Origin: Bacteroidota bacterium
GTDB taxonomy: Bacteria > Bacteroidota > Bacteroidia > Cytophagales > UBA9547
Assembly: GCA_004293915.1 (NCBI GenBank)
Contig: RDZG01000057.1
Coordinates: 1 to 64,000, forward strand
Reading direction: 5' to 3'
DNA: 64,000 bases
Each line of letters starts with the position of its first letter. Position 1 is the first letter of the stretch. The position numbers and the translations under genes were made by a program. The notes beneath the pieces are model-generated. The model was not told the DNA's origin, did not search any database, and worked only from the letters and a program-made list of their open reading frames with translations. Shown here one piece after another: positions 2,226 to 54,698 of the stretch.

Positions 2226-2232
2226 AGATTTG

Positions 2233-2496
2233 TTAATGTGTTAAATATCTATAATCTTTTTCAATTCCCAAAATTTGCTCTATGTGATACACCTCAGGGC
2301 AAGAGTTCCAAGTGAACATATTGCCCGAAAGAATTTGGTATTTTTTGCGGTCTTCTGGCTTTACAAATTTGGTAGACGGAAGTTTTTTAGCTGGTACAGT
2401 GATAATTCTTCCATCTTCTAAATAGATAGAAAAATGGGTGTTTTCAGTCCAAAGTATTTTTTTAATTTTTGGATGTGTTCCGATGAAGCCTTCCAT
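2233..2496 (-). CDS. Small DUF2442-like protein
   Basis: 87 aa. Resembles DUF2442 family short proteins as remembered (NTHFSIYLEDGRII). Sits at the end of the purL-side gene string. Confidence 0.4.
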   Translation of the reverse strand: MEGFIGTHPKIKKILWTENTHFSIYLEDGRIITVPAKKLPSTKFVKPEDRKKYQILSGNMFTWNSCPEVYHIEQILGIEKDYRYLTH

Positions 2497-2501
2497 GTGT
2501 T

Positions 2502-3674: not shown

Positions 3675-3690
3675 TTTTTTTATTTAATTT

Positions 3691-6117
3691 TTACCCCAAC
3701 ATCCCCTCAATCACTCCATCATACTGATTTTTAATTTCGTCAATGCCAAAATAAGTTTCGCCATCTATTACTGCATTTTTGCCTGTTACATTTCCCAAAA
3801 ACAAATAATCTACTTCTAGCACTTCGAAATAGCGGGTAAAAGCTTCTACGTTGCCTTTGCTTACGGTTACTAAAACTCTGCCTTGCGCTTCGCCAAAAAG
3901 GAAAGCATCTTTGCGAATAAGGGCATCAGTAAAAATCTCAAATCCTAATCCACGAGGAAAAGCAGCTTCCATCAAAGCTACTATCAATCCACCATCCGAA
4001 AGATCATGACAAGCATTAATCAATTTGTCTTTGATGAGTTTTTTTATCGTTTGTTGCATCGCATACTCTTCGTCCAAATCAAAATATGGAGCTGGAGAGG
4101 CTTTTATTCCCAAATAGCCATACAAATATTCTGAACTGGCAATGTCGTTGACAGAATTTCCTATCAAATAAATAAAATCTCCTTCAGCTTTAAAATCAAG
4201 TGTCATGTGATTACTTCTATCGTCCAAAATTCCAAGCATACCAATCGTAGGTGTTGGAAAAACGGGAATGGTTTCACCTTCTGGAGTTGAATATTGGTTG
4301 TAAAAACTCACATTTCCACCAGTAACTGGGGTTTGGAATTTCTCACAAGCTTTTTTCATTCCTTTGATACTTCCCACAAATTGCCAATATACATGCGGAT
4401 TGTAGGGATTTCCAAAGTTCAAATTGTTGGTAACTGCCACTGGCTCACCACCTGAGCAAACTACATTTCTCGATGCTTCTGCCACCGCCATGGCACAGCC
4501 TTCTTCCGGATTTGCATTTACATACCTTCCATTGCAATCGATATTCATAGCCAAAGCTTTATTCGTACCTTTTATTTTTACCACAGCCGAATCGGAAGGA
4601 GCATTGGTACACATATTTATGGTTCCCACCATGCTATCGTATTGGCGAGCAATCCATCTTTTCGATGCAATATTGGGTCTGTTTAATAAGAATTTGGAAA
4701 TTTCCACAAAATTCGTAGGCACTTTTACATCTTCGATATTAAACTTTTGAAACTCTTTGAAATAAGGAGGTTCGCTATATTCTCGATGATACACAGGAGC
4801 TCCGCCACCTAGTACTAAATCGTGGCAAGGAACATCGGCAACTAGAAAAGCATCTAATCCAAGCCCCCTAACCTCCGAAGGGGGAAGTGCTGCCGCATCC
4901 AACTCTTGCGAATGCAAATCTTGCGTAAGCAACTCCCCCTTCGGGGGCTGGGGGGCTTTTGATGCGCCAGCAGTCCCCCCTTCGGGGGTTAGGGGGCTTT
5001 TCCCTGTTTCCATGATTTCATTCATCAAATTATGCTGCTCTTGTGGAACATTATAATAAAAGTTTAATCTTTTAGAATCAGTTACTACCCCAATTTGGGC
5101 ACAATTCAAATCCCATTTCTCAAAGATGGACAATATTTTTTGTTCCATTCCTTTATGAACTACCACGAGCATTCGCTCTTGGCTTTCGGAAAGCAGGATT
5201 TCAAAAGGTTTCATATTTGCTTGTCGCATAGGAACTTTGTCGAGCCAAATCACCATACCATGTTCGCCTTTAGCACTCATTTCTGAGGTAGAACAAATGA
5301 TGCCAGCTGCTCCCATATCTTGAATACCGATTACAGCACCAGATTCTAGTACTTCCAAACTGGCTTCGAGCAACAGTTTTTCCATAAAAGGATCGCCTAC
5401 TTGCACTGCAGGAAGGTCTTTTGTAGAATCTTCTGTTAAATCTTTCGATGCAAAAGCAGCTCCATGAATACCGTCTTTTCCTGTAGAAGACCCTACAATA
5501 AACACTGGATTCCCCACACCATACGAAGTAGCAGATGCCGTATGTCCCACTTTTGCTATTCCTGCCGAAAACGCATTTACCAGCGGATTAATCGTATAAC
5601 ACTCGTCAAAATTGATTTCGCCTCCCACCGTAGGAATTCCAAAAGCATTGCCATAATCGCCAATTCCTTTTACCACCCCTTTCAAATGCCATTTAGCTTT
5701 TTCGTTGGTCAAATTTCCAAAACGCAACGAATTTAATTGGGCAATCGGTCGTGCTCCCATCGTAAAAATATCTCTATTAATACCACCAACTCCTGTAGCA
5801 GCTCCTTGGTAAGGCTCCAAAGCAGAAGGGTGATTATGACTTTCGATTTTGAACGAACAAGCCAATCCACCACCAATATCTACCAAACCTGCATTTTCTT
5901 CTCCTGCTTTGGCAAGCATACGTGGGCTATCTTTTGGCAGTTGTTTAAGCCACACGATTGAGTTTTTGTAGCAGCAATGTTCGCTCCACATGACCGAAAA
6001 TATACTTAATTCAGTAAAGTTTGGGCTGCGACCTAATATTTGTTTTACTTTTTCAAATTCTTCGTCACGAAGTCCTAATTTTTGAGCTGTTTCTAATGTT
6101 GGAAGTTGTTCTTGCAT
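3691..6117 (-). CDS. purL: Phosphoribosylformylglycinamidine synthase subunit PurL, carrying an in-frame ~50-aa repeat-derived insertion
   Basis: 808 aa. AIR-synthase-related N- and C-domain motifs typical of PurL. About 60-70 aa longer than usual because of the GC-rich element at 4861-5005. Confidence 0.85.
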   Translation of the reverse strand: MQEQLPTLETAQKLGLRDEEFEKVKQILGRSPNFTELSIFSVMWSEHCCYKNSIVWLKQLPKDSPRMLAKAGEENAGLVDIGGGLACSFKIESHNHPSALEPYQGAATGVGGINRDIFTMGARPIAQLNSLRFGNLTNEKAKWHLKGVVKGIGDYGNAFGIPTVGGEINFDECYTINPLVNAFSAGIAKVGHTASATSYGVGNPVFIVGSSTGKDGIHGAAFASKDLTEDSTKDLPAVQVGDPFMEKLLLEASLEVLESGAVIGIQDMGAAGIICSTSEMSAKGEHGMVIWLDKVPMRQANMKPFEILLSESQERMLVVVHKGMEQKILSIFEKWDLNCAQIGVVTDSKRLNFYYNVPQEQHNLMNEIMETGKSPLTPEGGTAGASKAPQPPKGELLTQDLHSQELDAAALPPSEVRGLGLDAFLVADVPCHDLVLGGGAPVYHREYSEPPYFKEFQKFNIEDVKVPTNFVEISKFLLNRPNIASKRWIARQYDSMVGTINMCTNAPSDSAVVKIKGTNKALAMNIDCNGRYVNANPEEGCAMAVAEASRNVVCSGGEPVAVTNNLNFGNPYNPHVYWQFVGSIKGMKKACEKFQTPVTGGNVSFYNQYSTPEGETIPVFPTPTIGMLGILDDRSNHMTLDFKAEGDFIYLIGNSVNDIASSEYLYGYLGIKASPAPYFDLDEEYAMQQTIKKLIKDKLINACHDLSDGGLIVALMEAAFPRGLGFEIFTDALIRKDAFLFGEAQGRVLVTVSKGNVEAFTRYFEVLEVDYLFLGNVTGKNAVIDGETYFGIDEIKNQYDGVIEGMLG
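4861..5005. repeat. GC-rich palindromic MITE/REP-like element inserted in-frame in purL
   Basis: AAGCCCCCTAACCTCCGAAGGGGGAAG ... AACTCCCCCTTCGGGGGCTGGGGGGCTTTT ... GTCCCCCCTTCGGGGGTTAGGGGGCTTTT. Same terminal motifs as the intergenic copy at 34981-35135. Local GC far above the genome background. Confidence 0.6.
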
Positions 6118-17138: not shown

Positions 17139-17253
17139 TAAAGTCTAAAAAATAATTACAAATTCCAATTTAACATTTCCCCATTGGGGAAATAAGAAAG
17201 GGGTTTAATAAAATTATAATTGTAACTATTTTTTAGACACAATACAACTTATA

Positions 17254-18022: not shown

Positions 18023-18177
18023 TTTTGATTTTTTTGTGCAAAGATTTATTTTTTTCGATTGATAAAAAAATTAATGTCGATTTTAGTTTTTTGCCTTAGT
18101 GGACATTTAAGATTAAACCAAAAAATAATTGGTTTGATGTCATGCTTAAATTGTTAAAAAATTAAATCAGTTTATAT

Positions 18178-18591
18178 AAAAACCAAACTTACCCACTTCA
18201 AAACTAAGTTTATTAAGTTCAAAACCAAACTTATCCACTTCAAAACAAAGTTGAGTTACTTTAGAACTAAACTAACTAACTAAAAAACCAAGTTAAGTGA
18301 GTTAAAAACCGAGTTATGTTAGTTAAATACTAAACTTACCCACTTTAAAACTAAGTTGTGTAAGTTTAAAACTAAACTAACTAACTAAAAAACTAAGTTA
18401 AGTGAGTTAAAAACCAAACTGATTGACATAAAAACTGAGTTGTGTGAGTTAAATACTAAACTTACTCACTACAAAACTAAGTTGAGTTACTTTAGAACTA
18501 AACTAACTAACTAAAAAACCAAGTTGAGTGAGTTAAAAACCGAACTTACCCACATCAAAACCGAGTTTACTTCGTTTTGAAGTGGGTAAAA
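18178..18591. repeat. Tandem array of ~18 degenerate 21-bp units ending in a hairpin, bounded by a 16-bp inverted repeat
   Basis: Exact 21-bp register from 18178 (aaaaccaaacttacccacttc / aaaactaagtttattaagttc / ...). TTACCCACTTCAAAAC at 18188-18203 is the reverse complement of GTTTTGAAGTGGGTAA at 18575-18590. Confidence 0.8.
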
Positions 18592-18737
18592 GTAGTATAT
18601 ATGTAATTTATTTAGTGTTTTAGAATATATTTTATTGTTTTATGAATTTAATGATTCATAAAATTGATGCAGGTACTATGATTATACACATCTATATCAG
18701 GCAAAAAAAATTGAATCCTCCAAAAAATGTAAAAATA

Positions 18738-19154
18738 TCAACTATGCTTATCAACAAATTCTTTACAATAGGTTTTTATTAATTCCCTCACAGCCCTAAA
18801 TTGAGCCATAATCTCATCTTCTGAGCCTTTTGCTTTGGCAGGGTCGGGAAAATTATAATGAAACTTTTGGGCTTTAGTCGGGAAATAAGGGCAACGCTCT
18901 TTGGCATTATCGCAAACGGTAATCACAAAATCAAAATCTATATCCAAATATTCGTTTATATTATTTGATGTATGTTGCGAAATATCTATCCCATCTTCTT
19001 GCATAATTAGAATTGCTTTGGGATTAACACCATGTGTTTCCACGCCAGCACTATAAATTTTTACAGCCTTATTTTTAGTAAATTCAGCCAAATAGCCATG
19101 TGCAATCTGACTTCTACAACTGTTTCCTGTGCAAAGCACCAATATATTTTTCAT
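18738..19154 (-). CDS. arsC: Arsenate reductase (LMW-PTP family ArsC)
   Basis: 138 aa. CTGNSCRS P-loop. Conserved downstream Cys residues. Confidence 0.8.
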   Translation of the reverse strand: MKNILVLCTGNSCRSQIAHGYLAEFTKNKAVKIYSAGVETHGVNPKAILIMQEDGIDISQHTSNNINEYLDIDFDFVITVCDNAKERCPYFPTKAQKFHYNFPDPAKAKGSEDEIMAQFRAVRELIKTYCKEFVDKHS

Positions 19155-19315
19155 GTTTTTACGGATTTAATGATTAAACAAAAAGCCAAATTAGATTTAT
19201 CAATGTAAATTTTGGATCAAAACCCCAAATGAGTTGAAGCCCTATAATTGAGGCAGTTATGATGATTGGTTTTTTGTATTTTAAGAATAAATTTTTCATT
19301 TTTAATATATCTGTT

Positions 19316-19893: not shown

Positions 19894-20817
19894 TTGCTCA
19901 ATAATAAAACTCATTTGCAAATTTCGGTCGAAAAAATAGCGGTTTTTACAGGGCACAAAGATTGTGTGTACACCGTTTTGGGAGATAAAAATGCCACCGA
20001 TTTTTATTCTGCTGCTGGCGATGGCATGGTTGTAAAATGGAATACTAAAAAACCCGATGAAGGCGAATTAATCGTAAAACTTCCACATTCGATTTACGCT
20101 TTACATTATTTAAAAGATAAACAGCAACTCATTATTGGTCAGAATTTTGAAGGAATACATTTGATTGATTTGGTTGAAAAAAAAGAACTAAAATCGCTCA
20201 AACTTACACAAAGTTATATTTTTGATATTTTAGTTTTTGAGCAAACTATTATTGTTGCTTGTGGCGATGGAAATGTACATATTGTTGATTTAGAGACTTT
20301 TACAAAAACAAAAACCTTATCTTTTTCCGAAAAAAGTGCTCGTTGCTTGTCCATTCATCCACATTTGAACGAATTGGCTATTGGATACAGCGACAACAAA
20401 ATTAGGATTGTTAATTTGAAAGATTTTTTGCTCCTCCAAACCATAGATGCACACACGATTTCGATTTTTAGTTTGTGCCATTCGCCAGAAAATAATTTTT
20501 TGGTGAGCGGCAGCCGCGATGCACACCTCAAATTTTGGGATTGCTGGAATCATTATGCAGCTACCGAAGATATTGTAGCACATTTGTATGCCATCAATCA
20601 TGTTGCTTATTCGCCTGATAATCAGTTTTTTGCTACTTGCAGTATGGACAAATCTATCAAAATTTGGGATGCCAAAACCAACAAACTTTTAAAAGTAATA
20701 GATAAATCCAGACATGCCGGACACGCAACTTCGGTTAATAAACTGGCTTGGCTCACTCAAAATTTACTGCTTTCGTGTAGTGATGACAAAAAAATATCGC
20801 TATGGAAAATCAATTAA
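19894..20817 (+). CDS. WD40-repeat protein
   Basis: Repeated GH...WD-type units (SGSRDAHLKFWD, CSMDKSIKIWD, CSDDKKISLWK). Confidence 0.75.
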   Translation: MLNNKTHLQISVEKIAVFTGHKDCVYTVLGDKNATDFYSAAGDGMVVKWNTKKPDEGELIVKLPHSIYALHYLKDKQQLIIGQNFEGIHLIDLVEKKELKSLKLTQSYIFDILVFEQTIIVACGDGNVHIVDLETFTKTKTLSFSEKSARCLSIHPHLNELAIGYSDNKIRIVNLKDFLLLQTIDAHTISIFSLCHSPENNFLVSGSRDAHLKFWDCWNHYAATEDIVAHLYAINHVAYSPDNQFFATCSMDKSIKIWDAKTNKLLKVIDKSRHAGHATSVNKLAWLTQNLLLSCSDDKKISLWKIN

Positions 20818-22154
20818 TCGACTATAAATCAGCTACATCTGTCGAAATAGTTTCAAAAATCGCTTCGGCACTTCGGATTAAGCTTATTGGAAAATTACTC
20901 ATCGAATGTTTTTCGCAAAACAAAGACGAATTAATTTTAGGCTTTGGCGATGCAAAAGAAGATTGTTGGATAAAAGCAAATTTTGATGTCGAAATTGGAC
21001 TTTTGAGCTTTCCAGAAATAGTGAGCAGAGCAAAAAAAAATTCGGTCGATATTTTTGCTATACTCAAAAACCTAAAAGTTTGCCATGTACATTATCATCA
21101 AAACGAACGCAGTTTTCATTTAGAATTTGAGCAAAATTATGATTTGATTTTCAAATTACATGGCAAGAACTCAAACCTAATTTTAGTCCAACATTTTAAG
21201 ACAATTGATGTTTTTAAACATAATTTACAAAACGATTTTAAAATTGATATTTTAAATTATGTACATGATAATCAAGTTGTTAAATACGAAAATATATTAG
21301 AAAATCTAACCAACTTTTATTCATCTTTTACAAAAGATTTTTATATAACAAAGCAAAAAAAACAAGCCTTTGTTGCTTTGCAAACCAAAATAAAATCAAT
21401 CGAAAAATACCTTTTTTCTGCCAAAACAAAACTTAATATTTTAGAAAATCATCTTTCGTATGATAAAATTGGACATATTTTGATGGCAAATTTGCATTTG
21501 AATATTTTAAATCAAAATGCAATAAAACTTATGGATTTTTATACCAATTTAGAAATCGAAATAAAACTAAAGCCATTGCTTTCGCTCCAAAAAAATGCAG
21601 AAATATATTATAGAAAAGCAAAAAACCAGAAAATCGAAGTTCAAAAAACCATAGAAACTATTGCTACAAAAGAAAAAGAATTAGTAAAACTCGAAATGTT
21701 ATTATCTGAAATTAATAACGCTGAGAACATAAAAGAAATTACACAAAAAACTACTAACGAAAAGCTGCTTGTTCCAAAGCAAAAAATAGCACAACAAACG
21801 CCATATCACGAACACGAACACGAAGGTTTTAAAATTTGGATTGGCAAAAATGCTCAACAAAACGATGTTTTAACCTTAAAATTTGCACACAAAGAAGACC
21901 TTTGGTTGCACGCCAAAGACAGTCCAGGTTCGCATGTGATTATAAAATTTCAGGCAGGAAAAACCATTCCCAAAACCGTGATTGAACAAGCCGCAAGTTG
22001 GGCAGCATTTTTTTCTAAACGCAAAAACGAAGGACTTGTGCCTGTGATAGTTACAAGCAAAAAATTTGTTCGCAAGCCAAAAGGTTTGCCTCCAGGTTCG
22101 GTGATTGTAGATAAAGAAGATGTGATTTTAGTAAAACCTCAAAAAACAGATTAA
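20802..22154 (+). CDS. NFACT-family (DUF814 / NFACT-R) protein, RqcH-like
   Basis: C-terminal DUF814-like block (FKIWIGKNAQQND...HAKDSPGSHVII...VPVIVTSKKFVRK). Overlaps the WD40 gene by 16 bp. Confidence 0.65.
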   Translation: MENQLIDYKSATSVEIVSKIASALRIKLIGKLLIECFSQNKDELILGFGDAKEDCWIKANFDVEIGLLSFPEIVSRAKKNSVDIFAILKNLKVCHVHYHQNERSFHLEFEQNYDLIFKLHGKNSNLILVQHFKTIDVFKHNLQNDFKIDILNYVHDNQVVKYENILENLTNFYSSFTKDFYITKQKKQAFVALQTKIKSIEKYLFSAKTKLNILENHLSYDKIGHILMANLHLNILNQNAIKLMDFYTNLEIEIKLKPLLSLQKNAEIYYRKAKNQKIEVQKTIETIATKEKELVKLEMLLSEINNAENIKEITQKTTNEKLLVPKQKIAQQTPYHEHEHEGFKIWIGKNAQQNDVLTLKFAHKEDLWLHAKDSPGSHVIIKFQAGKTIPKTVIEQAASWAAFFSKRKNEGLVPVIVTSKKFVRKPKGLPPGSVIVDKEDVILVKPQKTD

Positions 22155-22160
22155 GATAAA
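22116..22160. repeat. 45-bp direct repeat A (3' end of the NFACT gene), left boundary of the inserted element
   Basis: gaagatgtgattttagtaaaacctcaaaaaacagattaagataaa. Matches 24424-24468 with 3 substitutions. Confidence 0.8.
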
Positions 22161-22173
22161 AGTTTCATTTATA

Positions 22174-22205
22174 CCTAAAGGTTGGTGTTCTTCACAACAA
22201 AACTT
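22174..22205. repeat. Partial, degenerate copy of the two-hairpin structured repeat (hairpin-2 half)
   Basis: cctaaaggttggtgttcttcacaacaaaac versus the full copy cctaaaggttggtgttcttcaccaacaaaac at 24017. Confidence 0.6.
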
Positions 22206-22340
22206 TTAAAATCTGATGAAAATCCAACAAAAGCTGGAATTTGCAACACTATTTTAAATTATAAATATTCATCAGCAAAATATAATGAGTTGAATCAATC
22301 TGAATGGACATTTTTGTTTAGTTTATTTGAATAATATTTG

Positions 22341-22372
22341 ATTGATTTGTTGGTAAAAGAACACAAACAAAG
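22341..22372. repeat. Partial copy of the two-hairpin structured repeat, in inverse orientation
   Basis: tttgttggtaaaagaacacaaacaaaggc versus copy 4 tttgttggtaaagaacaccaaaggc at 54769. Confidence 0.5.
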
Positions 22373-22571
22373 GCGGAAAAGTTATTGTAATATGAAATTA
22401 TTGTATATTTATTCGTTAGAAACGAATGTCTCAACCGACCACGTTGAAAACGAGGTCGATTGGGGTAGAAAGAAATACATAAAAACTTAAGATTAACTCT
22501 ACCCAACAACGCAAGTATTTGCACAAAAATGAACATTATAAAATTTAATAAAAATTAATTAATAAAATATC

Positions 22572-23438
22572 ATGGCAAGAAAAAGAAGAAAAATAGGCTT
22601 TTATTATTTAACAGTTTCAATTGACAATTATGACAAACAAGTGGTTTTTAATCAAATTATAACATATATAAAAGATTTACCCAGAGCTTCTAAAAAATTT
22701 AATCTTGGCGATAATAAATTCTGTGTATTAGACTCTGTTACACCATATCTAAACGACAATAGATATAAAATTGTTTTTAAGAGTGCAACACATAGTTTTA
22801 GACCAAATTTGATACATCAACAAACTATAGACGAACGAGAAAATCCTAAACAAATTCAAGAGGGTGAAATAGAAAAAACGCATATATTAATAAAAGCAAT
22901 TAATGGAGATTTAGTTGTAATTTTCGAAAAACATTTAGGGGGGATTGGCATGAATCAATTGGTAAAATATTTAAATAATTTTACAAGTCAATTTCAAAGA
23001 GATCAAAATTTAGAGAGTTTTAGATTTGGACATGAAATAATAGTGAAAGATGATTTTTTGGAAGAAATAGCAAATCTAAATCGAGTAACTAGTGCGGAAA
23101 TATATGTGGATAAACAAATATTAGGTGGTGACGCATTAAATTTCTCAAACAGAACAAATCAGGTGAAACATGAAGTTGTTGTAAGTGTAAAAGCTAATAA
23201 TAGAAGTTCGATAAGTGAATTCGCAAATGACTTATATGCGAGTTTTAATGGAGGTGAAAATAGAATAAATAAAATTAGATTAGTCGGAAAAAATCACGAC
23301 AATAATGATGTTGTAATTAAAACTGACTTTATAGAAAGGCAGGAATATATAAATCCAGAAATGAATACAGAAACTGGTGAAATATCCACTCACGATATTT
23401 TCACAGAAATGGAAAATGTACTTTACAACTTTAATTAA
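22572..23438 (+). CDS. Hypothetical cytoplasmic protein (cargo gene 1 of the inserted cassette)
   Basis: 288 aa. No TM helix. No motif recognised. AT-rich codon use. Followed 1 nt later by a membrane-protein gene. Confidence 0.5.
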   Translation: MARKRRKIGFYYLTVSIDNYDKQVVFNQIITYIKDLPRASKKFNLGDNKFCVLDSVTPYLNDNRYKIVFKSATHSFRPNLIHQQTIDERENPKQIQEGEIEKTHILIKAINGDLVVIFEKHLGGIGMNQLVKYLNNFTSQFQRDQNLESFRFGHEIIVKDDFLEEIANLNRVTSAEIYVDKQILGGDALNFSNRTNQVKHEVVVSVKANNRSSISEFANDLYASFNGGENRINKIRLVGKNHDNNDVVIKTDFIERQEYINPEMNTETGEISTHDIFTEMENVLYNFN

Positions 23439-23439
23439 T

Positions 23440-23952
23440 ATGTATATCGAGTTCTTTCTTCTGATTTTTGATTATTTCAAAACAATTACTAAACGAATAT
23501 TCTTTTTTGAGATCGGTATTCCATTTCTATTAGTAGTTATATTATTCTTTTTTAATAAAAATGAAGATTTTGCTGCTTACAAACTTTTCAAAGAGAATTC
23601 GATAAATATTTTGGGTGTTCTTTTGGGCTTTTCAATTACAGTAATTACAATTTTTACAACTGGAAGTGGAAAAAGTATTGATGAAATAAAAATTTTAAAA
23701 ACAAGGTTTAAAATTGGAACTAACCCAATAACATTATATGAGCTTTTAATAATAAATTTTACTTATTCAGTAGTTTTAGAAGTTTTGGTTATAGTTGGAT
23801 GTTTAGTTATGCCATTATTTTCAAGCAAAGCATATTTTAATATACAACTTAAATTATGTTTATATCTAACATTAGTTTACTTGGTTATCCATATTCTTTT
23901 TTTGACTATGCGAAATTTGACAGATTTCTATTTAATAATCACAAAAAAATAA
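23440..23952 (+). CDS. Small integral membrane protein, ~4 TM (cargo gene 2)
   Basis: ATG at 23440 lies 1 nt after the cargo-1 stop. Four long hydrophobic segments. The ORF-track start at 23377 would overlap cargo 1 and is less likely. Confidence 0.5.
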   Translation: MYIEFFLLIFDYFKTITKRIFFFEIGIPFLLVVILFFFNKNEDFAAYKLFKENSINILGVLLGFSITVITIFTTGSGKSIDEIKILKTRFKIGTNPITLYELLIINFTYSVVLEVLVIVGCLVMPLFSSKAYFNIQLKLCLYLTLVYLVIHILFLTMRNLTDFYLIITKK

Positions 23953-24013
23953 TTCCCTAATCACCCACTCAACCTCGTTTACAACCTTTAGATTTGTAAA
24001 ATATAATTTTTTG

Positions 24014-24127
24014 CCTAAAGGTTGGTGTTCTTCACCAACAAAACTTACATTTAATAAATAATTTGCTATGTTCGTAGATTAGAAAGTTAATGCATGTTGG
24101 TCGAAAAGAAGACCAACATGGGCAGGA
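24014..24127. repeat. Full copy of the two-hairpin structured repeat (copy 2)
   Basis: gcctaaaggttggtgttcttcaccaacaaaac ... catgttggtcgaaaagaagaccaacatgggcagga. Reverse complement aligns along the full length with the copies at 53216-53313 and 54699-54792. Confidence 0.75.
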
Positions 24128-24372
24128 AAATCAAGCCAAATGAATTTGCAATTATAAATACTATAAATAATGAAGTCTTTTTTTTTAATATAGATTCTAA
24201 AATTACAAGTAAAATTTTAGAAATAAAGAATTCTTTTGATGATTTACCAATTATTGATAATTTAAAATTTAATCTAAAAATGTCGGTTGATGAATATAGT
24301 GATATAATTTATATTGCCTTTCAAACAAAATCAAAAAAAATATTGATTTATTCTATTAAAATTCCTATTTAG
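24118..24372 (+). CDS. Small hypothetical protein
   Basis: 84 aa from the second ATG (MGRKIKPNEF...). The start overlaps the repeat boundary. Low coding confidence. Confidence 0.3.
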   Translation: MGRKIKPNEFAIINTINNEVFFFNIDSKITSKILEIKNSFDDLPIIDNLKFNLKMSVDEYSDIIYIAFQTKSKKILIYSIKIPI

Positions 24373-24423
24373 ATAAAAAAACCACTCGACATCGTTTATA
24401 GAAATCGAGGTCGAGTAGGTGGG

Positions 24424-24468
24424 GAAGATGTGATTTTAGTAAAACCCAAAAAAATAGATTAAGATAAA
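24424..24468. repeat. 45-bp direct repeat B (displaced NFACT 3'-end remnant), right boundary of the inserted element, overlapping the sprA stop
   Basis: gaagatgtgattttagtaaaacccaaaaaaatagattaagataaa. Reading-frame remnant EDVILVKPKKID* versus the intact EDVILVKPQKTD*. Confidence 0.8.
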
Positions 24469-27400
24469 CTAAATCGGAGTCTGACGCCAAACTGAAAAGT
24501 GCTTTGACGGAACGAAGTCGAAATTTTTGGAATGGTCAATCTATATTCGCAATAGATTTGAATATTTAATCGTTGATTAAGTTGATAACCAATATTTGGT
24601 GTTACTTGATACGTAGTTACACCTTGTGTTACCACAGGCGAATCATCCAATCTGCGTTGGGTAATTTTTGAATCTCTCCGAGAAATATCGACCCTAAATT
24701 GTACATCGTTTTTGATAACAATTGTCCGTCCACGATACATAAAAGGCAATTTTAAATTTGCTTTTGTATAGCCATATCCAAAAACAAATTCGCTACTTCT
24801 GTTTTCGTTGATTTGGCTATTGGCAATACTGAGTGTAACATTTCTATCGGTTTTGTACTCAACCCTAAAATTCATATTGTTTTTGGTTTTCATATTTACA
24901 CCTAAAAAAGGAGTAAATCTATCTATAATCGAAACGCTATTGATTACATTGATGGGAGCAAAATTATTTTTAAAATCGGCTGCCGAATCTGGTTTTGCCA
25001 CTCCAATTGGCTGTGATGGATTTAAGTATTCAAATGGAAAATCTTTTCTGATATCATTAGTATTGTTGTATTTCCCGTTTGATGTAAAATTTCCAACATT
25101 ATAAGTCGAAGAATATGCATGTGTGATACTGATAGAAGGAAATATTTTTTTTAATCCTGGAAAAATATTTCCCAAACCTGCATAATCTAATCGCCAGTTT
25201 GGCAACGGTATGCGTGGAAATGCCGACAAGCCCGATTTAGTGGCATCTTTTCCGCTATATGCAGCCAAAAAAGCTGGAATCAACACATCTTGATGGTTTT
25301 TATCATACCTAAAGTCTGTTTTTTGAGTTCCATTTTCTTGGGCTTCAATCGTTGGATTTCCATCTTTTAATCTTTCCAAAATTACATTTCGATTAGATTG
25401 AAATTCATTAAATACCGCATTGGTGTTGTCTGAATTATCTGCCACAAAAAATGTACCGATAGACATAAAAGAAATATTATAATTTCCAGAACGTGTGGGA
25501 GCTAGGGATTCGAATCGATTATAAAATGGGTTTGATGTATCCGAAGTTGTATTGTATTTAAACAATTCTTGATAGGCACTTGTGTAACTCACTTTGGCAT
25601 CGAGCTGTATTCTAAAATCCCTAAAAGGCTCCACTGTGGCTCTTCCATTGATGTTATTTGTTCGGTTTTGTGCCACAAAATTACTCAGATTTTGTGCTTT
25701 CGACATGTATTTATCCGCAAAATCTGGATTTCTGTAAATTCGATTATCTTGACTACCTAAAATAAATGGCAAAAAATCGGTGTAAAGCGAACCTTCATTT
25801 TGGCTATCATCGAGTCCAAAATAGCGAGGTTTACCTTTATATCCAGGCAGAACTGTGCCTTCTGTTTGTTGGTAAGTAGCATTCACAGATTTTACCATCG
25901 TGAGTAAACGGGCAACAAATTTGAGTCCTCTAAGTTCGGGTGGAGGTGGGGCTTTTTTGCTTGTATCTTTTGGATTTGGGACTGGTTTTGGAGCAGGAGG
26001 TTGATTTAACTTACTCAAAAACTTAACTTTATTATAGATTTTTGCCAAATCTGCACGAGCATTTAAGGTTAAATCACGGTTATTTTGGGCTGTATTACCC
26101 AACGAATCGGTTTTTCGACCTGCAGCACCCGCATTAAAATTAAAGCCCGCATTATACGAAGCATCAGCAGATAAAAAACTCGTTAATGGAAATTTATCGA
26201 GCGGTAATTTATAATTTAGTCGAGCATTTTGGACAAAGTTTTTGGTTCGTCCGCCTCGTGTTAAATTAAACATAACCGAATCTCGTTTGGTAAAATTTGG
26301 ACGACTCGAACTAATTAAATCATCATTTATATCTCCGCCTGGCTCATCCACAATGGCATTTACATTGGCAGAATAATTAAAACTAATGCTTTTGGTAAAA
26401 TTCCAACTCATGGCATAGTTTCGGTTAAACAAAAAACGTTTTTCAAACGTTGGAATAATCCCATCTATGTTATGTCTGCCCGATTCTATTCCGTTGCTGT
26501 ATTGCGTTTTGATAATGGTTCGATCCAAATCGCCACGCAGGGTAATACTGGCTGGCAATGGCGAAAAATTCATTTCTTTAATTAATTTCAGATATGGAGA
26601 TTTGAACGGACCATCCACTTTTTTTAAAGGCTCAATATTTGAATTTGCTAAATTATAATTATAACCCAACCCCGCTCTATAATTTCTTGAGTTATAGCTT
26701 TGGATATTTACATTTGCACGATTTACATCCGAATAAGCAACCGTAGCCGAAAGATTTTCGACATCATAAATATGTTTTTTTGCATTGGGTTTTACTTTTA
26801 CTTTTTGCACATTGGTAAGACTCACACTTCGTCTAAGTGTTTGATCTTCAATAAGTTTTGCATACTCGCTACGTATAGAATCGGGTCTGCCATTTATAGA
26901 ACGTTCGGTTAAAACATCTGGTCGCAAAGGGTCATACCTAGGTGTAATGTCTTTTCTGTCGATACTCACAAAAAGTGGCAATTTTAATCCAATGTGTTTT
27001 TCGTTTAGAGGAATAAGTTTATCGATGGCAAAATTCCCATTAGCACCATAATCGTGTGTGGTTTCTTGCAACCGTTGCGAAACTTTTTGCTCCAATCCAC
27101 CAAAACCAGCAGTAGCATAACGAGTTGTGCCTGCTATATTTCCAAAATCAGCTAACTTAATATTTAGTTTTGCGGTAGCAGCAAGTCCATCGGCATTTTG
27201 AAAACCCGACATACGCAATTCGTTTGCCCAAATACACAAACTTTTTGAGGTTCTGTCGCCACCCTGTTTTTTAGGATTACGAATACCAATCATAACAGCT
27301 TGAATATTAGCATAATTAGGCGTTCCTCGAATATATAATCTTTGTTTAGTAAGATTTTTTCCAGTACTATCTGTAAGAAAACCTGCATCAAAAATCTGAA

Positions 27401-30400
27401 AACGATCTACATCGCGAGTCGAATCTCTGCGTACTTTTTGGGTCGATAAATCTTCGAGCTTAAAATCAAACCAATTGTCTTTTCTCCAAATTTCAAGTTT
27501 ATCATTTAAAATACTTCCATCGTCAATTTCTTTTCCGTTTAAAGTTGATAATTTATCATTTTTTGTAAAATCAAGCGGAATTTCTACTTCGTAATAATTA
27601 TCTGTTAAATCTGTACCAATACGCATAAAAATGCGTGTATCTTCATCTTTTGTGAAAATATCAGATGTTTCGGCATGTACAAACATCCGCATACGGTCGT
27701 AGTTTATTAAGTTTACTCCCGATGAACCTGTACTATAAATTTTAAAAGCACCTCTAGCATCGTTATAAGCCAAATTATCGACACACAAACGCAACGAGTG
27801 TTCGTTTAATCTTCTGTTTACAGTATTGCTCAAATCTCTATCTCGCTGAAAACCTGGTGGTTGCACATACGGACTATTTCCATTTAACACACCTTGAGTA
27901 TTTTCTTCAGCATTTACTTGCGAAATAGTAAAAACTTTATCATCGGGTTCGATTACTTGTTTCAAACCTTTTCCAGATAAATCTCCCAAAAATGGACGCC
28001 AAGTGCTGGCAACTAATTCTAGTTTTGCGGTTCGAATCACAACGGGTTCTGCCCAATCGGTGAGTGCCATACGCAAAAAGCGAATAGATTTAAAATTTTC
28101 TATATCTCCAACTTTTTCAAAACCTTCTCTGAGCGGAATTCGGAACAAATACCATTTCACTGCTTCGTCAGCATCCAATGCATTATTATTATTAAAATCT
28201 ACGGTTTCTGTAACTTCATTGATGATAAAATTAGAACCTACTTTTAATTGACCAGGTCTTAAATCTAATTTATATTTAAAATAAGCTTCTATATCATTAA
28301 GTGTGTTGTTTTGATTCAAATCTTCGTTATCGGGTGTATTATAATTATTTCGGGTTTGCCCAGTAGATTCTTGCGAATTTTTTTCTTGTCCATTAAACAA
28401 TTTATAACGTTCTGCAATTTTTGCCGAACGTCCATTTATATTGTCATACGATGCATCCAAATAATGTTTAAAATTATCGTTTGATGGATCAGACTCTATT
28501 TGATTATAGGTTTCAGTCGAAACTATCGATTTTATTTTATCCAAAAAACGACTTCTAAAATACCCTCTTTCTTGGTCATCACTCAAGCCTTCGAGTCCTA
28601 TGTCTTGTGCTTCTCTGGCTCCTTCTTGTGTGCCAAAAGCATTGGTAAGATAGGGCTGATTGGTAACTCTACTAACTGCTGTCAAATCTGTGGTTGGAGA
28701 ATTTATATCGTTAGGCACCGAAAGTCCTTGTTCAAAATTTTGTCTGCCATCTTTTATGGCATCTTCGGAAATACTACCTAAATGGAACTCAATTCGTCCA
28801 CCAGTTGCGTTACTTTTGTTGAGTCGTCCGTCTAGCACTCTACCTCTATTTGTGGCTATAAATGGATCCATCATCCAAAACTCCAAGTACTGATAGTTGG
28901 CATTATCAAAATCGGTATCTTGGTTGTTTACAGCTCGTGTGATACCAGCCCAGCTATTTCTTGGCGATGTTAAAAGTCCATTTTGGTTCAAATTTGAGCT
29001 ATAATTATACGGACCACGTTCTTCTGGATAAAAAGCCAAATCGAAAACAGGCTCAGGTGTTTGCAATTGTTGTCTATCTCTTCCCGGAAATAACGCCTGT
29101 TGGTTTATCGCTCGCACATAATGATTTGTTAAATCTTCGGCTGTGATGCTGTCTGGAATATTTCCTCTTTGTTGATAAAACGAAAAATCGACTTGATACC
29201 AAGCCAATCGAGCACGATTATCGCCAATAGCAATGGGATTAGAATTTTCGTTATAATTCAATCCTTCTAACCCTTTTGGAACAGATGCAATTCGCCACAC
29301 ATTTTGCGGAGCACTGCTGCCTAGAGAAAACTCTGTTTGGCTGTTTTCAAAATCATCTAAATAATAATTGGGTTGCCCACCTTTTTCAACAAAAGATGGC
29401 GAACCTGTGTTGAGTTTTGCAAATTCACCACTAAATTGAATGGTAGATTTTTCTTTGGTGTTAATTACAGGAAGTTTATCAACTAATTTGGTTATAAATC
29501 CACTCTCACGTTTAAATGTTCCATCCAATCCATAAATACTATTACTTACTGGTTCATCACCAATTGCCACACGAGAGATTTGTGGACGTTCGCTCAAGCT
29601 CAAATATGTTGCTCCAAAAGCAACATCTTTATTTACTTTATAATCTGCACGTAAGCCCAAAAATCCACGTTGCCGAACCTGAAACAAATCTTGTTTGTCG
29701 AATTTAACTCTTACATCTTGACCGGGCATTAAAAAAACAGGATTTATAATCTTTATTTGCCCAAGTTCTGGCATTAAAATGTAATCAATATTTTCATTAA
29801 GTCTTTGACTTCCAGAATATACGCTAACAGATTTCGGGTCAATATTTCCTCCAAAACTGGCAAATTGAATCACGTCCGAACTCGAAGACTGAAGTTGTCC
29901 AATCAAAAAGAATTTGTTTTTCCCTGCCAATTGCAACACATCTGATTTTGTATTTCGATAGATTTCATCAAAAACATATTGATTAATCAATTGCGGTTGA
30001 GCAAGTGTATCTTGTCCAAAAGATTTTCGCAAATGGCTACCAAAAGGCTCAAGCACAGGGAAAATCATGCGTCCATAGGCTGGATCAATTGTAACTGCCG
30101 TAACTTTATTGGTTTGAATACTTAAATTTATATTCTGACTTGGGTCGTTTAGATTTGTATTTTGAGGTGTCGTATTTTGTTGATTTGGATTTTGTGTAGT
30201 ACCTTGATTGGGCAAAGTTGGTTGCAATGCCGTGTTTTGCGGACCAACTGCACTTGTTTGATTAGTGGCATTATCAACAAAATCGAAATTTCCATCGGGT
30301 TGCAAATCGTTACTCATGTTGAGTTTATCCAAATTCATAACCTCAATCAATGGTTTTCCTTCTATTCCACCAAAAACATCATCTCTTGTGCCACCATAAT

Positions 30401-32165
30401 TTAAAATCGGATTATTTAATTGTGTTCTATCGTTCCTATAATTTACCCTAAACTGGAAATTTTCTCTCGAAATTTGTGTACTTCCGAGCGAATAAATGTT
30501 TTTCATTTGCAAATTCCACATTGGGATATTAGTCCGAATGGTACTTGGTCGCAATAATTTCAAAAATAACAATGTTTTATTTACTGTGGTAATAGGTACT
30601 TGATTGGGATTTTGTTGAAATTGCTGCCCATTTTGATTAAATGTTGGATCACCTAAATTTGTGCCTGTTTGGCTACTTGTTCGTCTGTCGTCAATCATTT
30701 CTCCAACTTTATAAAAAACACCACGATACGAATATTCGTAAGCCACAGCCAAAACATCGTCTCTACTAAGTGGAGAGTTTAATGAAATATAACCCAATTG
30801 CGGATGAAATCGAAAGCGAGAAGGGTCAAGTTTTTTTGCATTTCTAACCAATTCATAATCGTTTCCGTTTTCGAGCATAAATGCCGAACTGCTCATTACA
30901 CTTACTATATCATCGGCATTTCTTGTGCCAGCACTTTCACTATTTATAAGTTTTTCGTATAAATTATTGGCTCTGTTATCGGCAACACCGTTGCTTAGTG
31001 TTCCCATTTGAATATCTTCTTTATTATATGGATTTTTTTCTCCCAAATCCATAAAAGCAGCAATGTTGTTTAATTCTATCGATGTATTATCGCGGTTGGT
31101 TACATACACATCCACACGTGTAATCATCACACCCGAGTTGATAACTGGCGTGGTTTCGAGCGATTTTTCATAATTATCTCTAAAAAATTGGGATAAAAAA
31201 TAATGTTGGTTGTCTTGATAATCTGTCGAACGAATCTCAAATTTGCGAACCTGTGCTCCACCTTGCACTTTTACTTCGTCTGCCCTACCTCGTTGATTTG
31301 CAGCCACACCCACAATATTTAAACGTCCAAATTTCAATGTAGCTTTTACCCCAAACAAATTTTGTGCTCCTTGAATCAAACTGTTATTCAATGGCATACT
31401 TACATTCCCAGCCTCAATTTTTTGAATGATATCGGTTTCGGATGAAGTATAGTCTATTTTAACGGTATTATCAAAATCGAACTGCGAACGTGTATCTTGA
31501 TTAATGGTTAATCGCAAACGTTCGCCAATTTTTCCTTGTGCGTTCATCGCTATATTTTGATCAAACCTAAACGCACCAATAGTTCTTAAATTTACAGGAA
31601 CTGCTGGATTATCAATGGTTTGCAAATTATAGCCAAAATCTAATAAAACCGAACCATTTAGTTTTACATCAATATAGTTTCCACCAAAAATACGGTCTAA
31701 ACTTGGGTTAATATAGACTCTCGGAACTAGTCCACGATTGCTTGTGGCAGGATTTTGGGCTTCTTTTTCTTTTGCTTTTTGTGCATAAAAGTTTTTGATA
31801 GTCTTGCGTTTTTGATATTCTTTAAATTGTTCATAAGTCATTTGGGTTGGAGGTCTTAGCTCAACATCGTTGAGTTTTTCGTCAATCGTATACGATTTTC
31901 CATCTTCAGTTATTTGAACATCTGTTTTTGCTTTTTTATTTCCTATATCATAAAAAGGAGTTTTGCCTTTTGGATCCATAAACTCATCGCCATATCTATC
32001 TTTTGGTTTGTAAGTAGAGCGTTTCGATGGTTTATATTTTTGAGCGGGTGCCGTTTTTGTAGTATCGTTTTGGGCAATAGCAAAAGTGCATACTCCAAAA
32101 ATGAAGCATATTAATGTTCCAACGTTAATTAAATTGTTGGTAATATGTCGAAGTATTTTACTCAA
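24459..32165 (-). CDS. sprA: Gliding motility / T9SS protein SprA
   Basis: 2568 aa with a signal peptide. Giant beta-rich protein directly downstream of ruvA, as in Flavobacterium. Size and composition fit SprA. Confidence 0.8.
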   Translation of the reverse strand: MSKILRHITNNLINVGTLICFIFGVCTFAIAQNDTTKTAPAQKYKPSKRSTYKPKDRYGDEFMDPKGKTPFYDIGNKKAKTDVQITEDGKSYTIDEKLNDVELRPPTQMTYEQFKEYQKRKTIKNFYAQKAKEKEAQNPATSNRGLVPRVYINPSLDRIFGGNYIDVKLNGSVLLDFGYNLQTIDNPAVPVNLRTIGAFRFDQNIAMNAQGKIGERLRLTINQDTRSQFDFDNTVKIDYTSSETDIIQKIEAGNVSMPLNNSLIQGAQNLFGVKATLKFGRLNIVGVAANQRGRADEVKVQGGAQVRKFEIRSTDYQDNQHYFLSQFFRDNYEKSLETTPVINSGVMITRVDVYVTNRDNTSIELNNIAAFMDLGEKNPYNKEDIQMGTLSNGVADNRANNLYEKLINSESAGTRNADDIVSVMSSSAFMLENGNDYELVRNAKKLDPSRFRFHPQLGYISLNSPLSRDDVLAVAYEYSYRGVFYKVGEMIDDRRTSSQTGTNLGDPTFNQNGQQFQQNPNQVPITTVNKTLLFLKLLRPSTIRTNIPMWNLQMKNIYSLGSTQISRENFQFRVNYRNDRTQLNNPILNYGGTRDDVFGGIEGKPLIEVMNLDKLNMSNDLQPDGNFDFVDNATNQTSAVGPQNTALQPTLPNQGTTQNPNQQNTTPQNTNLNDPSQNINLSIQTNKVTAVTIDPAYGRMIFPVLEPFGSHLRKSFGQDTLAQPQLINQYVFDEIYRNTKSDVLQLAGKNKFFLIGQLQSSSSDVIQFASFGGNIDPKSVSVYSGSQRLNENIDYILMPELGQIKIINPVFLMPGQDVRVKFDKQDLFQVRQRGFLGLRADYKVNKDVAFGATYLSLSERPQISRVAIGDEPVSNSIYGLDGTFKRESGFITKLVDKLPVINTKEKSTIQFSGEFAKLNTGSPSFVEKGGQPNYYLDDFENSQTEFSLGSSAPQNVWRIASVPKGLEGLNYNENSNPIAIGDNRARLAWYQVDFSFYQQRGNIPDSITAEDLTNHYVRAINQQALFPGRDRQQLQTPEPVFDLAFYPEERGPYNYSSNLNQNGLLTSPRNSWAGITRAVNNQDTDFDNANYQYLEFWMMDPFIATNRGRVLDGRLNKSNATGGRIEFHLGSISEDAIKDGRQNFEQGLSVPNDINSPTTDLTAVSRVTNQPYLTNAFGTQEGAREAQDIGLEGLSDDQERGYFRSRFLDKIKSIVSTETYNQIESDPSNDNFKHYLDASYDNINGRSAKIAERYKLFNGQEKNSQESTGQTRNNYNTPDNEDLNQNNTLNDIEAYFKYKLDLRPGQLKVGSNFIINEVTETVDFNNNNALDADEAVKWYLFRIPLREGFEKVGDIENFKSIRFLRMALTDWAEPVVIRTAKLELVASTWRPFLGDLSGKGLKQVIEPDDKVFTISQVNAEENTQGVLNGNSPYVQPPGFQRDRDLSNTVNRRLNEHSLRLCVDNLAYNDARGAFKIYSTGSSGVNLINYDRMRMFVHAETSDIFTKDEDTRIFMRIGTDLTDNYYEVEIPLDFTKNDKLSTLNGKEIDDGSILNDKLEIWRKDNWFDFKLEDLSTQKVRRDSTRDVDRFQIFDAGFLTDSTGKNLTKQRLYIRGTPNYANIQAVMIGIRNPKKQGGDRTSKSLCIWANELRMSGFQNADGLAATAKLNIKLADFGNIAGTTRYATAGFGGLEQKVSQRLQETTHDYGANGNFAIDKLIPLNEKHIGLKLPLFVSIDRKDITPRYDPLRPDVLTERSINGRPDSIRSEYAKLIEDQTLRRSVSLTNVQKVKVKPNAKKHIYDVENLSATVAYSDVNRANVNIQSYNSRNYRAGLGYNYNLANSNIEPLKKVDGPFKSPYLKLIKEMNFSPLPASITLRGDLDRTIIKTQYSNGIESGRHNIDGIIPTFEKRFLFNRNYAMSWNFTKSISFNYSANVNAIVDEPGGDINDDLISSSRPNFTKRDSVMFNLTRGGRTKNFVQNARLNYKLPLDKFPLTSFLSADASYNAGFNFNAGAAGRKTDSLGNTAQNNRDLTLNARADLAKIYNKVKFLSKLNQPPAPKPVPNPKDTSKKAPPPPELRGLKFVARLLTMVKSVNATYQQTEGTVLPGYKGKPRYFGLDDSQNEGSLYTDFLPFILGSQDNRIYRNPDFADKYMSKAQNLSNFVAQNRTNNINGRATVEPFRDFRIQLDAKVSYTSAYQELFKYNTTSDTSNPFYNRFESLAPTRSGNYNISFMSIGTFFVADNSDNTNAVFNEFQSNRNVILERLKDGNPTIEAQENGTQKTDFRYDKNHQDVLIPAFLAAYSGKDATKSGLSAFPRIPLPNWRLDYAGLGNIFPGLKKIFPSISITHAYSSTYNVGNFTSNGKYNNTNDIRKDFPFEYLNPSQPIGVAKPDSAADFKNNFAPINVINSVSIIDRFTPFLGVNMKTKNNMNFRVEYKTDRNVTLSIANSQINENRSSEFVFGYGYTKANLKLPFMYRGRTIVIKNDVQFRVDISRRDSKITQRRLDDSPVVTQGVTTYQVTPNIGYQLNQRLNIQIYCEYRLTIPKISTSFRQSTFQFGVRLRFSLS

Positions 32166-53080: not shown

Positions 53081-53215
53081 AAAAAAAGCTTAGGATATAA
53101 AAAAATGAGGAAGGTTACTTAAAATATTCGTGCAATGAAACTAAAATTCGTTTCAAACCGTACTATTTCCAATTTATAGGGTTTTTATTGTAGTAGCATT
53201 AACTAATTCTACAAA

Positions 53216-53313
53216 TCCTGCCCTTTTTGGAGTTCTTCTCCATCAAGCTACTATTGTTTCTTTACGGCTTTCAAATATTATGTTTGTTGGTGAAGAACAC
53301 CAACCTTTAGGCG
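53216..53313. repeat. Two-hairpin structured repeat, copy 3
   Basis: tcctgccc-tttttggagttcttctccatcaag-...-ttcaaatattatgtttgttggtgaagaacaccaacctttaggc. Confidence 0.75.
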
Positions 53314-53351
53314 TAAAGATATATATCTGATTTTTTTAGACGAATAGCTTA

Positions 53352-53567
53352 TTGAAAAGGGAGAGCCACTTTAGTGAGTACTACAGCCAGAAAACTGGGA
53401 GTAATCATATGGACAATGATTGTAAAAAAACACCTTACAAACCACCCACCGAATATCTATTCTTCGACCAAAAAAGAAAGCAAAAGGTAGTAGAAAGAAC
53501 AAAGAAAAATATTGCTAAATTTGCACTCAAACCCGAAGAGGTAGGTTTTATAACTAACTCATTATGA
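53352..53567 (+). CDS. Small ORF translationally coupled (ATGA overlap) to the downstream Abi-like gene
   Basis: 71 aa from a TTG start, or 53 aa from the ATG at 53409. Stop overlaps the next start. Uncertain whether it is coding. Confidence 0.25.
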   Translation: MKRESHFSEYYSQKTGSNHMDNDCKKTPYKPPTEYLFFDQKRKQKVVERTKKNIAKFALKPEEVGFITNSL

Positions 53568-54667: not shown

Positions 54668-54698
54668 AACTACTACTAACATTTCGCCTTTATTGGTA

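Follow-up and report, generated by a model that had tools for sequence, protein, structure and literature searches.

A two-gene cassette between NFACT and sprA

The DNA analysed here is a 64-kb stretch (positions 1 to 64,000 of contig RDZG01000057.1, hereafter the window) of a metagenome-assembled genome (MAG) recorded as "Bacteroidota bacterium". We studied a small island in it that lies between two convergent genes, an NFACT/DUF814 gene (20802..22154, plus strand, 450 amino acids (aa)) and sprA (24459..32165, minus strand, 2568 aa). The island carries three open reading frames (ORFs) on the plus strand, annotated as EAZ53_05025 to EAZ53_05035 in the MAG record. Gene A (EAZ53_05025, 22572..23438) encodes a RexA-like cytoplasmic protein of 288 aa, gene B (EAZ53_05030, 23440..23952) starts 1 nucleotide (nt) later and encodes a four-helix membrane protein of 170 aa, and ORF92 (EAZ53_05035, 24094..24372) encodes an orphan protein of 92 aa. 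The identities of the two flanking genes, as named in an initial annotation of this DNA, agreed with Pfam, which placed NFACT_N (PF05833) and NFACT-R_1 (PF05670) in the former and SprA_N (PF14349, 1e-148) in the latter. The GC content of the island is 0.23-0.29, compared to 0.31-0.40 in the flanks, and the GC content at third codon positions is 0.17-0.18, compared to 0.24-0.31, in agreement with the earlier remark that the codon usage of the cargo is more AT-rich than that of its neighbors.

Comparison of A, B and ORF92 with Pfam, NCBIfam and PADLOC gave nothing meaningful, and PADLOC-DB v2 returned 0 families at E <= 1. The initial annotation, which had proposed the PADLOC search, described the 288-aa protein as having no recognisable domain. 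Although Pfam indeed gives no match, a structure search instead pointed to RexA. In a Foldseek comparison of A with the PDB, lambda RexA (8twq) was the sole match at E <= 0.001, with an E-value of 7.8e-8, a probability of 1.0 and 307 aligned columns. The two-domain fold of RexA, a globular domain that is split plus a dimerisation domain resembling RdgC, was found in A, whose fold is related to that of the DNA-encircling protein RdgC. Direct reading of the sequences showed that an N-terminal GFY strand motif is common to A and RexA. When 75 distant members of the A family were compared with Pfam, no family was matched by more of them than PF15969 (RexA), with 3 members at a sub-threshold level (best E 0.003).

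Homologues of A are numerous. A word-indexed search gave 91, a full HMMER search gave 534 representative clusters (50% identity) at E <= 0.001, and the named relatives are almost all from Bacteroidota. The full-length phage protein families phrog_4672 and phrog_4613 were matched by A (5e-19) and B (5e-17), respectively, and both are annotated as "unknown function" in PHROG. The name DUF4747 was attached in UniRef to two A homologues only, and it was not reproduced by our searches, including those against NCBIfam. In tblastn searches of GenBank phages, A gave one weak fragment and B none, and a search of plasmids with both proteins gave a single match of 25% identity, in Monoglobus. For ORF92, no family match was found, its cluster is a singleton, and tblastn gave no match in any of the fetched loci.

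The initial annotation had described the second protein as a partner of about 170 aa with four transmembrane (TM) segments, and this was borne out. Four hydrophobic segments were found in B, and its AlphaFold2 model (predicted local distance difference test score 83.5) consists of four long helices, of which the second and third are joined by a conserved loop.

The A and B genes occur together. In 17 of 17 full-length genome loci, a B homologue comes directly after the A homologue, and 15 of these loci have a gap of between -1 and +6 nt. The loci belong to Flavobacteriales, to Bacteroidales (among them Prevotella, Alloprevotella and Porphyromonas) and to some unclassified MAGs, and two of them, L019 and L026, have an interrupted A frame. 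The invariant residues include E97, G98 and H104 in A and G63, T88, E114, H151 and R158 in B. Compared with the most similar pair (locus L028, 73% identity), both genes are under strong purifying selection, with a nonsynonymous divergence (dN) of about 0.18 and a saturated synonymous divergence (dS). What the L028 cassette has in common with the window is the operon alone, beginning 20 nt upstream of the start codon of A, and its flanks are unrelated, indicating that the mobile unit is essentially the two genes.

The homologous pairs lie mostly on chromosomes, among neighbors that are typical of defence or mobile regions. They include HsdM together with a YhcG nuclease (L010), an Eco57I-type methylase (L021), a RES protein (L011), a Schlafen/AlbA_2 protein (L023), tRNA genes (L016 and L018), and a tyrosine integrase directly upstream of the pair in Cellulophaga (L013). 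One pair was also observed on a GC-rich contig of a Mu-like phage from IMG/VR (L030, 9846-11278), where an A homologue of 30% identity is followed 2 nt later by a B homologue of 178 aa; the early region of the phage holds this pair, with genes for a MuA-like transposase and a repressor-like protein close by. In a Porphyromonas MAG (L022), the A-B pair (1920-3314) was found between direct repeats of about 600 bp (1149-1769 and 3420-4007) with 85% identity, a geometry that resembles the island of the window at a larger scale.

Relation of the cassette to Rex-type exclusion systems

Several studies have shown experimentally that a RexA/DUF4747 protein and a 4-TM partner exclude phages, namely in lambda, Sbash, CarolAnn, Butters and Pseudomonas putida, and a "DUF4747/CarolAnn" immune operon is now named in the literature. 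The pair in the window shares its architecture with lambda RexA/RexB (PF15969, PF15968; PDB 8TWQ), in which a soluble protein of about 280 aa is likewise followed by a small 4-TM protein in a tightly coupled arrangement. The initial annotation had recognized a soluble protein with a small membrane protein as a layout of abortive-infection modules, and the RexAB architecture supports this in kind. It had also put the cassette forward as an undescribed system, which does not hold as such, since A has the fold of lambda RexA and the pair has an architecture already described for RexAB and DUF4747-CarolAnn. A literature search found no description of a Rex-like family in Bacteroidota.

The differences from these systems are also clear. 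Identity to the lambda proteins is only 10-12% with no Pfam match, B has 170 aa compared to 144 aa in RexB, the host belongs to Bacteroidota rather than Enterobacteria, and the pair lies outside a prophage immunity region, with no adjacent cI or cro. The actinophage systems Sbash gp30/gp31, CarolAnn gp44/gp43 and Butters gp30/gp31 also combine a cytoplasmic protein with a 4-TM partner whose central cytoplasmic loop is conserved. The partners have 165-178 aa, similar to the 170 aa of B, and the Sbash pair can be expressed from its own promoter outside the immunity region, which we count as a likeness. On the other hand, their A-type proteins are longer (337-372 aa compared to 288 aa), no sequence match was found, and they are borne on prophages, whereas the present pair sits in a chromosomal islet of 2.3 kb. 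The Pseudomonas putida pair PP_5643/PP_5644 (Sci Rep 2026) is encoded by a prophage and has been tested experimentally, while the pair of the window is non-prophage and known from its sequence. Kiwa, in which a tetraspan membrane protein (KwaA, 4-TM) is combined with a soluble DNA-binding protein of about 300 aa (KwaB, DUF4868), is similar in composition, but its gene order is reversed, no PADLOC match to KwaA or KwaB was obtained at E <= 1, and the fold of A points to RexA. Since the fold of A is that of RexA and the architecture is that of RexAB, but membership could not be established by sequence and the prophage context is missing, we regard the pair as a distant branch of Rex-like systems, mostly of Bacteroidota.

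We therefore propose that the island probably is a Rex-like two-gene phage-exclusion (abortive-infection) module, at a locus with a history of an old insertion followed by turnover. What is observed is A's fold, B's topology, the strict order of A before B, the purifying selection and the defence and phage context of the homologues, and from these we infer DNA binding, channel activity and an anti-phage phenotype by analogy with the characterized systems. By this analogy, A would be a dimeric, non-specific DNA binder with a two-domain fold of the RexA/RdgC type, and it may sense a DNA or protein-DNA state that is specific to infection. B would be translationally coupled to A and inserted in the inner membrane as a four-helix protein, and, as modelled for RexB and Sbash gp31, it could be activated by A through its conserved central cytoplasmic loop. 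Activated B would then dissipate the membrane potential and ATP, and the infection would abort.

Several observations weigh against this proposal. Pfam matches to RexA or DUF4747 are absent for A of the window and for 39 close homologues, and sequence profile searches of the PDB with A miss RexA. The hhalign comparisons agree in direction with the proposal but were weak for both proteins: the A family aligned colinearly with lambda RexA over 113 columns (P 0.0026, probability 12%), and TM2 and the following loop of B aligned with lambda RexB (P 0.005, probability 7%). B did not match the Pfam family RexB (PF15968), although RexB-type partners are usually undetectable by sequence. The best structural matches of B in BFVD were non-significant (E about 0.2, probability 0.90-0.97). 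The second-best of them, which would favor the proposal, is a 165-aa protein of Sbash; the published length of Sbash gp31 is 165 aa, and the identification of this match as gp31 is unconfirmed and based on length alone. No prophage or immunity-region genes were found in the window, unlike the situation in lambda and CarolAnn, and even for lambda RexB the "ion channel" is still a model.

The direction of signaling could also be reversed. In a logic similar to that of Kiwa or Butters, B would be a sensor or an anchor that detects a perturbation of the envelope or the entry of phage DNA, and A would bind the incoming DNA and block phage replication or late transcription, with no killing by depolarisation. 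Non-specific DNA binding is a property of RexA and its homologues, which can act without RexB, Butters gp30 has been described as the main antagonising protein with gp31 as its modulator, the RexA-like protein of P. putida has been modelled as a clamp around DNA, and the relation of A to RdgC fits such a role. The classical models of Rex and Sbash, however, place the lethal step at the membrane protein, and sequence is silent on the direction of signaling. We consider this arrangement unlikely.

Even less probable, in our judgment, is a role outside defence, in which the pair would be an addiction or maintenance module, a lysis-lysogeny regulator left by a decayed prophage, or a housekeeping pair for DNA handling at the membrane. 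RexA additionally tips the lambda switch in the direction of lysis, and there are orphan homologues of RexA that lie outside prophages; a role of this kind would agree with the uninformative PHROG annotations and with the failure of every defence database to recognize the pair. Against such roles, the pair is patchy and strain-variable and adjoins restriction-modification, RES and Schlafen-type genes in other genomes, no copy lacking its partner was seen among the loci examined, and the island holds no repressor, Cro-like or prophage gene. All experimentally tested pairs of this architecture exclude phages.

If the proposed Rex-like function is correct, the family marks a blind spot of defence annotation, because a Rex-type pair with 534 clusters is invisible to Pfam, NCBIfam and PADLOC and was recognized through structure only. 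Adding both families to the models of defence finders would improve the annotation of Flavobacteriales, Bacteroidales and Cytophagales, including Prevotella and Porphyromonas of the gut. The pair would also offer a compact and distant system for testing how a sensor with the RexA fold communicates with a four-helix partner, a question that stands about 70 years after the rII/Rex phenomenon.

Repeats and history of the NFACT-sprA junction

As reported in the initial annotation, the 45 nt that end the NFACT gene (22116-22160) are found again at 24424-24468, where 3 of them differ. The ungapped match extends to 54 nt at 87% identity (22107-22160 and 24415-24468, both plus strand) with a spacing of 2308 nt. 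Copy 1 of this direct repeat (D1) comprises the functional 3' end of NFACT, including its stop codon (22152-22154), and 6 further nt. Copy 2 is a fossil of the same end, which reads GEDVILVKPKKID* in frame (EDVILVKPKKID*). The fossil TAA (24460-24462) overlaps the sprA stop codon (TTA on the plus strand, 24459-24461), so the TTAA is common to both, in line with the earlier description of an in-frame fossil. The AGATAAA that closes D1 also makes up the final three codons of sprA, so that the duplicated segment covers the ends of both genes. A search for other genomic copies of the 45-nt repeat had been suggested earlier; within the window only these two were found, and 0 of 100 shuffles contained two matches.

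Relatives of the locus were collected through NFACT, for which orthologues at 97% aa identity exist (cluster P0092). The nearest ones are Cytophagales MAGs, and not genomes of the Flavobacteriia, which had been named earlier as the group for comparison. Four of the eight members of the 90% NFACT cluster gave usable contigs (L031-L034), with 95-97% DNA identity to the window. Three of them (L031, 13.5 kb; L033; L034) have the order WD40-NFACT-SprA(-RuvA) and carry no cassette. In these strains, homology to the window breaks off at 22176 and begins again at 24451, and the junction reads NFACT...AAAATAGATTAAGACAAA, then AGTTTCATTTTTACCT TTGTCTCGTCCT, then again AAAATAGATTAAGACAAA followed by CTAAATCGG...(sprA). 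It thus consists of a direct repeat of 18 nt on either side of a spacer of 28 nt, whose first 16 nt are identical to the first 16 nt of the island. The fourth strain (L032) tracks the window up to 22235 and then differs, which represents a third state of the site. The locus is a small, well-resolved defence hot spot between two core genes, if the proposed function is correct, with three allelic states in close strains.

Since the cassette is missing from three strains of 95-97% identity, it is strain-variable accessory DNA. The comparison with an empty site that had been proposed for the 2.3-kb insertion thus confirmed its accessory nature, but the clean single-copy stop-to-stop junction was absent in L031, L033 and L034, all of which keep the 18-nt repeat and the spacer. 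Hypothetically, a pristine junction would have ...GAYAAACTAAATCGG directly after NFACT. Two scans of metagenome DNA, one with the junction and one with the core of the repeat, gave 0 matches, and a contig scan with the NFACT protein and exact look-ups of the NFACT, low-molecular-weight phosphotyrosine phosphatase (LMW-PTP) and RuvA sequences of the window found no relative. NFACT relatives of 74% and 56% identity keep WD40-NFACT, but they have no sprA downstream and are hence uninformative on the site.

Because the cassette-free strains have an 18-nt duplication and share the left junction with the window, the duplication stems from an older event or a hot spot and does not demonstrably record the arrival of the cassette. 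The simplest history that accommodates the shared left junction is an old insertion with a duplication of at least 45 nt, turnover of the cargo and a deletion scar in three strains. Under this history, NFACT and sprA would once have overlapped stop-to-stop, and an old insertion at their junction would have duplicated 45 nt or more. The cargo of the site would later have turned over, giving two partial or complete copies of a two-hairpin repeat (U1 and U2) and three copies of a palindrome (H1, H1' and H2), both described below, in the order U1, H1, A, B, H1', U2, ORF92 and H2 in the strain of the window, and other content behind a U1-like end in one sister strain. In the three cassette-free sisters, a stub of 28 nt and 18 nt of the duplicate would remain, most simply as a deletion scar. 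A and B may have entered or been exchanged by recombination at the two-hairpin repeats or in the conserved flanks, and any recombinase would have acted in trans.

The alleles of the repeat bear on the age of this event. Copy 2 has 1-2 mismatches to the functional NFACT ends of the sister strains L034 and L032. The PKKID allele of the fossil is also that of the functional NFACT ends in the sister strains, and copy 1 of the window reads PQKTD. This is consistent with an old event after which copy 1 of the window drifted to PQKTD. At 3 of 45 nt, the two copies differ about as much as the strains do at synonymous sites (dS 0.05). Two points are less favorable to the proposed history. It is not proven whether the sisters underwent a deletion or the strain of the window a gain. 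Moreover, both copies of the window have GATAAA (22153-22160 and 24461-24468) and both copies of L031, L033 and L034 have GACAAA; this concerted T/C difference calls for gene conversion, for mutations in parallel or for insertions that struck one site independently, and a single ancient duplication without gene conversion does not predict it.

The initial annotation had interpreted the repeats as the classic signature of site-specific integration at the 3' end of a gene. On this reading, a tyrosine or serine recombinase would have integrated the unit, with its own copy of the NFACT 3' end, at an att site in that end, the integrase being supplied in trans or lost since. As in att-flanked integrative islands, the 3' end of the target gene is restored by direct repeats, here of 45-54 nt, and a displaced fossil of it stays behind, and the sister allele PKKID in that fossil, with PQKTD in copy 1, would suit such an origin. 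The pair directly downstream of a tyrosine integrase in Cellulophaga and the tRNA genes beside the pairs of L016 and L018 also speak for it. In the window, however, two defining features of the classic reading are missing. No ORF of the island matched an integrase or recombinase domain in library scans, and tblastn with the integrase of a neighboring locus found no remnant, which confirms the earlier remark that no integrase is present; no tRNA or Rfam family was found within or beside the island. In addition, the sites of the cassette-free relatives have the 18-nt repeat and 28-nt spacer instead of a single att copy, the most similar cassette (L028) has no common flanking or att-like sequence, and the island is composite, with U1 and U2 around A-B and an unrelated segment with ORF92. 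Integration of the unit by a recombinase at NFACT thus appears improbable to us.

A second direct repeat (D2) is nested inside the D1 pair, at 22157-22202 and 23997-24042, with an exact core of 22 nt, CCTAAAGGTTGGTGTTCTTCAC. D2 is the left end of an element of about 110 nt that has two hairpins and inverted termini, the latter indicated by the match of its model to the opposite strand. U1 (22165..22235, plus strand, nhmmer E 6e-7) is a short degenerate copy at D2 copy 1, and U2 (24007..24130, plus strand, E 4e-27) is a full copy at D2 copy 2. The order in U2 is TTGGTG-TTCTT-CACCAA, about 50 nt, TTGGTC-loop-GACCAA and then CATGGGCAGGA; its DNA fold has a z-score of -3.75, and the annotated start of ORF92 lies inside its second hairpin. 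Four copies of about 70-125 nt each were found in the window, the other two being U3 (53213-53319) and U4 (54693-54798) on the minus strand, and every full copy was matched on both strands. Their small size, terminal inverted repeats and multiple copies are those of elements like miniature inverted-repeat transposable elements (MITEs). No clear target-site duplication was seen around them, and the other fetched loci held no copy except a weak, non-significant U1-like match in L032 (nhmmer E 0.099). U1 and U2 bracket genes A-B, which suggests that the pair entered or was exchanged as a sub-cassette, and U3 and U4 bracket the other accessory islet of the window. These nested repeats, together with those around the second islet and the repeats of about 600 bp in Porphyromonas, suggest an exchange of small cassettes at the hot spot.

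The same repeats also fit, in part, a scenario that overlaps with the favored history, in which the D1 repeat is the scar of a local duplication or hot spot and the cassette was swapped in later through the flanks or the two-hairpin repeats. A shorter form of the duplication is present in the three cassette-free relatives, L032 shares the left end but has other content behind it, the second islet too is bracketed by U-type repeats, and the Porphyromonas homologue lies between direct repeats with 85% identity. This scenario does not readily account for the 27 extra nt of the fossil in the window, since the 18-nt form could give rise to them only with the help of a template. Furthermore, no donor locus with A-B between NFACT and sprA was found, and U1 and U2 are only 78% alike outside the 22-nt core. 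We regard it as possible but doubtful.

An imperfect palindrome occurs three times in the island and nowhere else in the window. H1 (22428..22472, plus strand) is 45 nt long and lies 100 nt upstream of gene A, with a fold of -9.2 kcal/mol (z -3.1). H1' (23963..23985, plus strand), 11 nt past the stop codon of B, is a half copy with the 5' arm only. H2 (24380..24420, plus strand) abuts the fossil repeat and has a DNA fold of -12.3 kcal/mol (z -6.5), with 0 of 200 shuffles as stable. The palindromes were considered as integron attC sites and rejected, as inspection showed no RYYYAAC/GTTRRRY ends. A scan for sigma-70 promoters did no better than shuffled sequences.

The NFACT-sprA junction and at least one other site could conceivably be served by a mechanism of insertion or exchange that works without an integrase in cis and shuffles anti-phage cassettes in an integron-like manner in Cytophagales-like Bacteroidota. 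Under such a mechanism, two-hairpin repeats of about 110 nt would bracket the cassettes, 18-54 nt of the target would be duplicated, and the concerted T/C difference would reflect independent site-specific insertions instead of one ancient event. An enzyme of the IS110 type, which targets hairpin repeats, may be one candidate for a recombinase that acts in trans. We consider this mechanism quite unlikely.

Other accessory DNA in the window

The second accessory islet (53197-54805) lies between alaS (50380-53037, minus strand) and an aminotransferase gene (55174-56382, minus strand), with the direct copies U3 and U4 (about 95-105 nt) on either side. It contains a gene for a DUF2806/Abi_alpha-like protein of 367 aa (53564-54667) and what is left of an IS110-type transposase, a frameshifted C-terminal piece (about 53340-53567) that is cut exactly at U3.

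Two further insertions were observed upstream of the island. At 18117-19308, an insertion of about 1.2 kb specific to the window carries a gene of the LMW-PTP family (18738-19154, minus strand). It is absent in L031-L034, where the ThiF gene and a gene for a 175-aa protein are 36 nt apart, and no repeats were found flanking it. L031 lacks a palindromic insertion of about 87 nt that the window has at 17155-17240. This insertion holds TTTCCCCATTGGGGAAAT, its ends are inverted (AATTACAAAT...ATTGTAACT), and beside it stands the adjacent GTCTAAAAAA in an inverted copy. It looks like a tiny MITE or hairpin element.

A gene for a WD40 beta-propeller protein overlaps the start of NFACT by about 16 nt, both in the window (19894-22154) and in other loci (L004, L006 and L031). 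The pairing of the two genes is kept down to 56% NFACT identity, and the gene 3' of NFACT varies. A Logan contig with a 97%-identical NFACT (L003) stops exactly at the last base of repeat copy 1 (1979-1990, …GATTAAGACAAA); its assembly graph may branch at the end of the repeat, consistent with mixed junction states in the sample.

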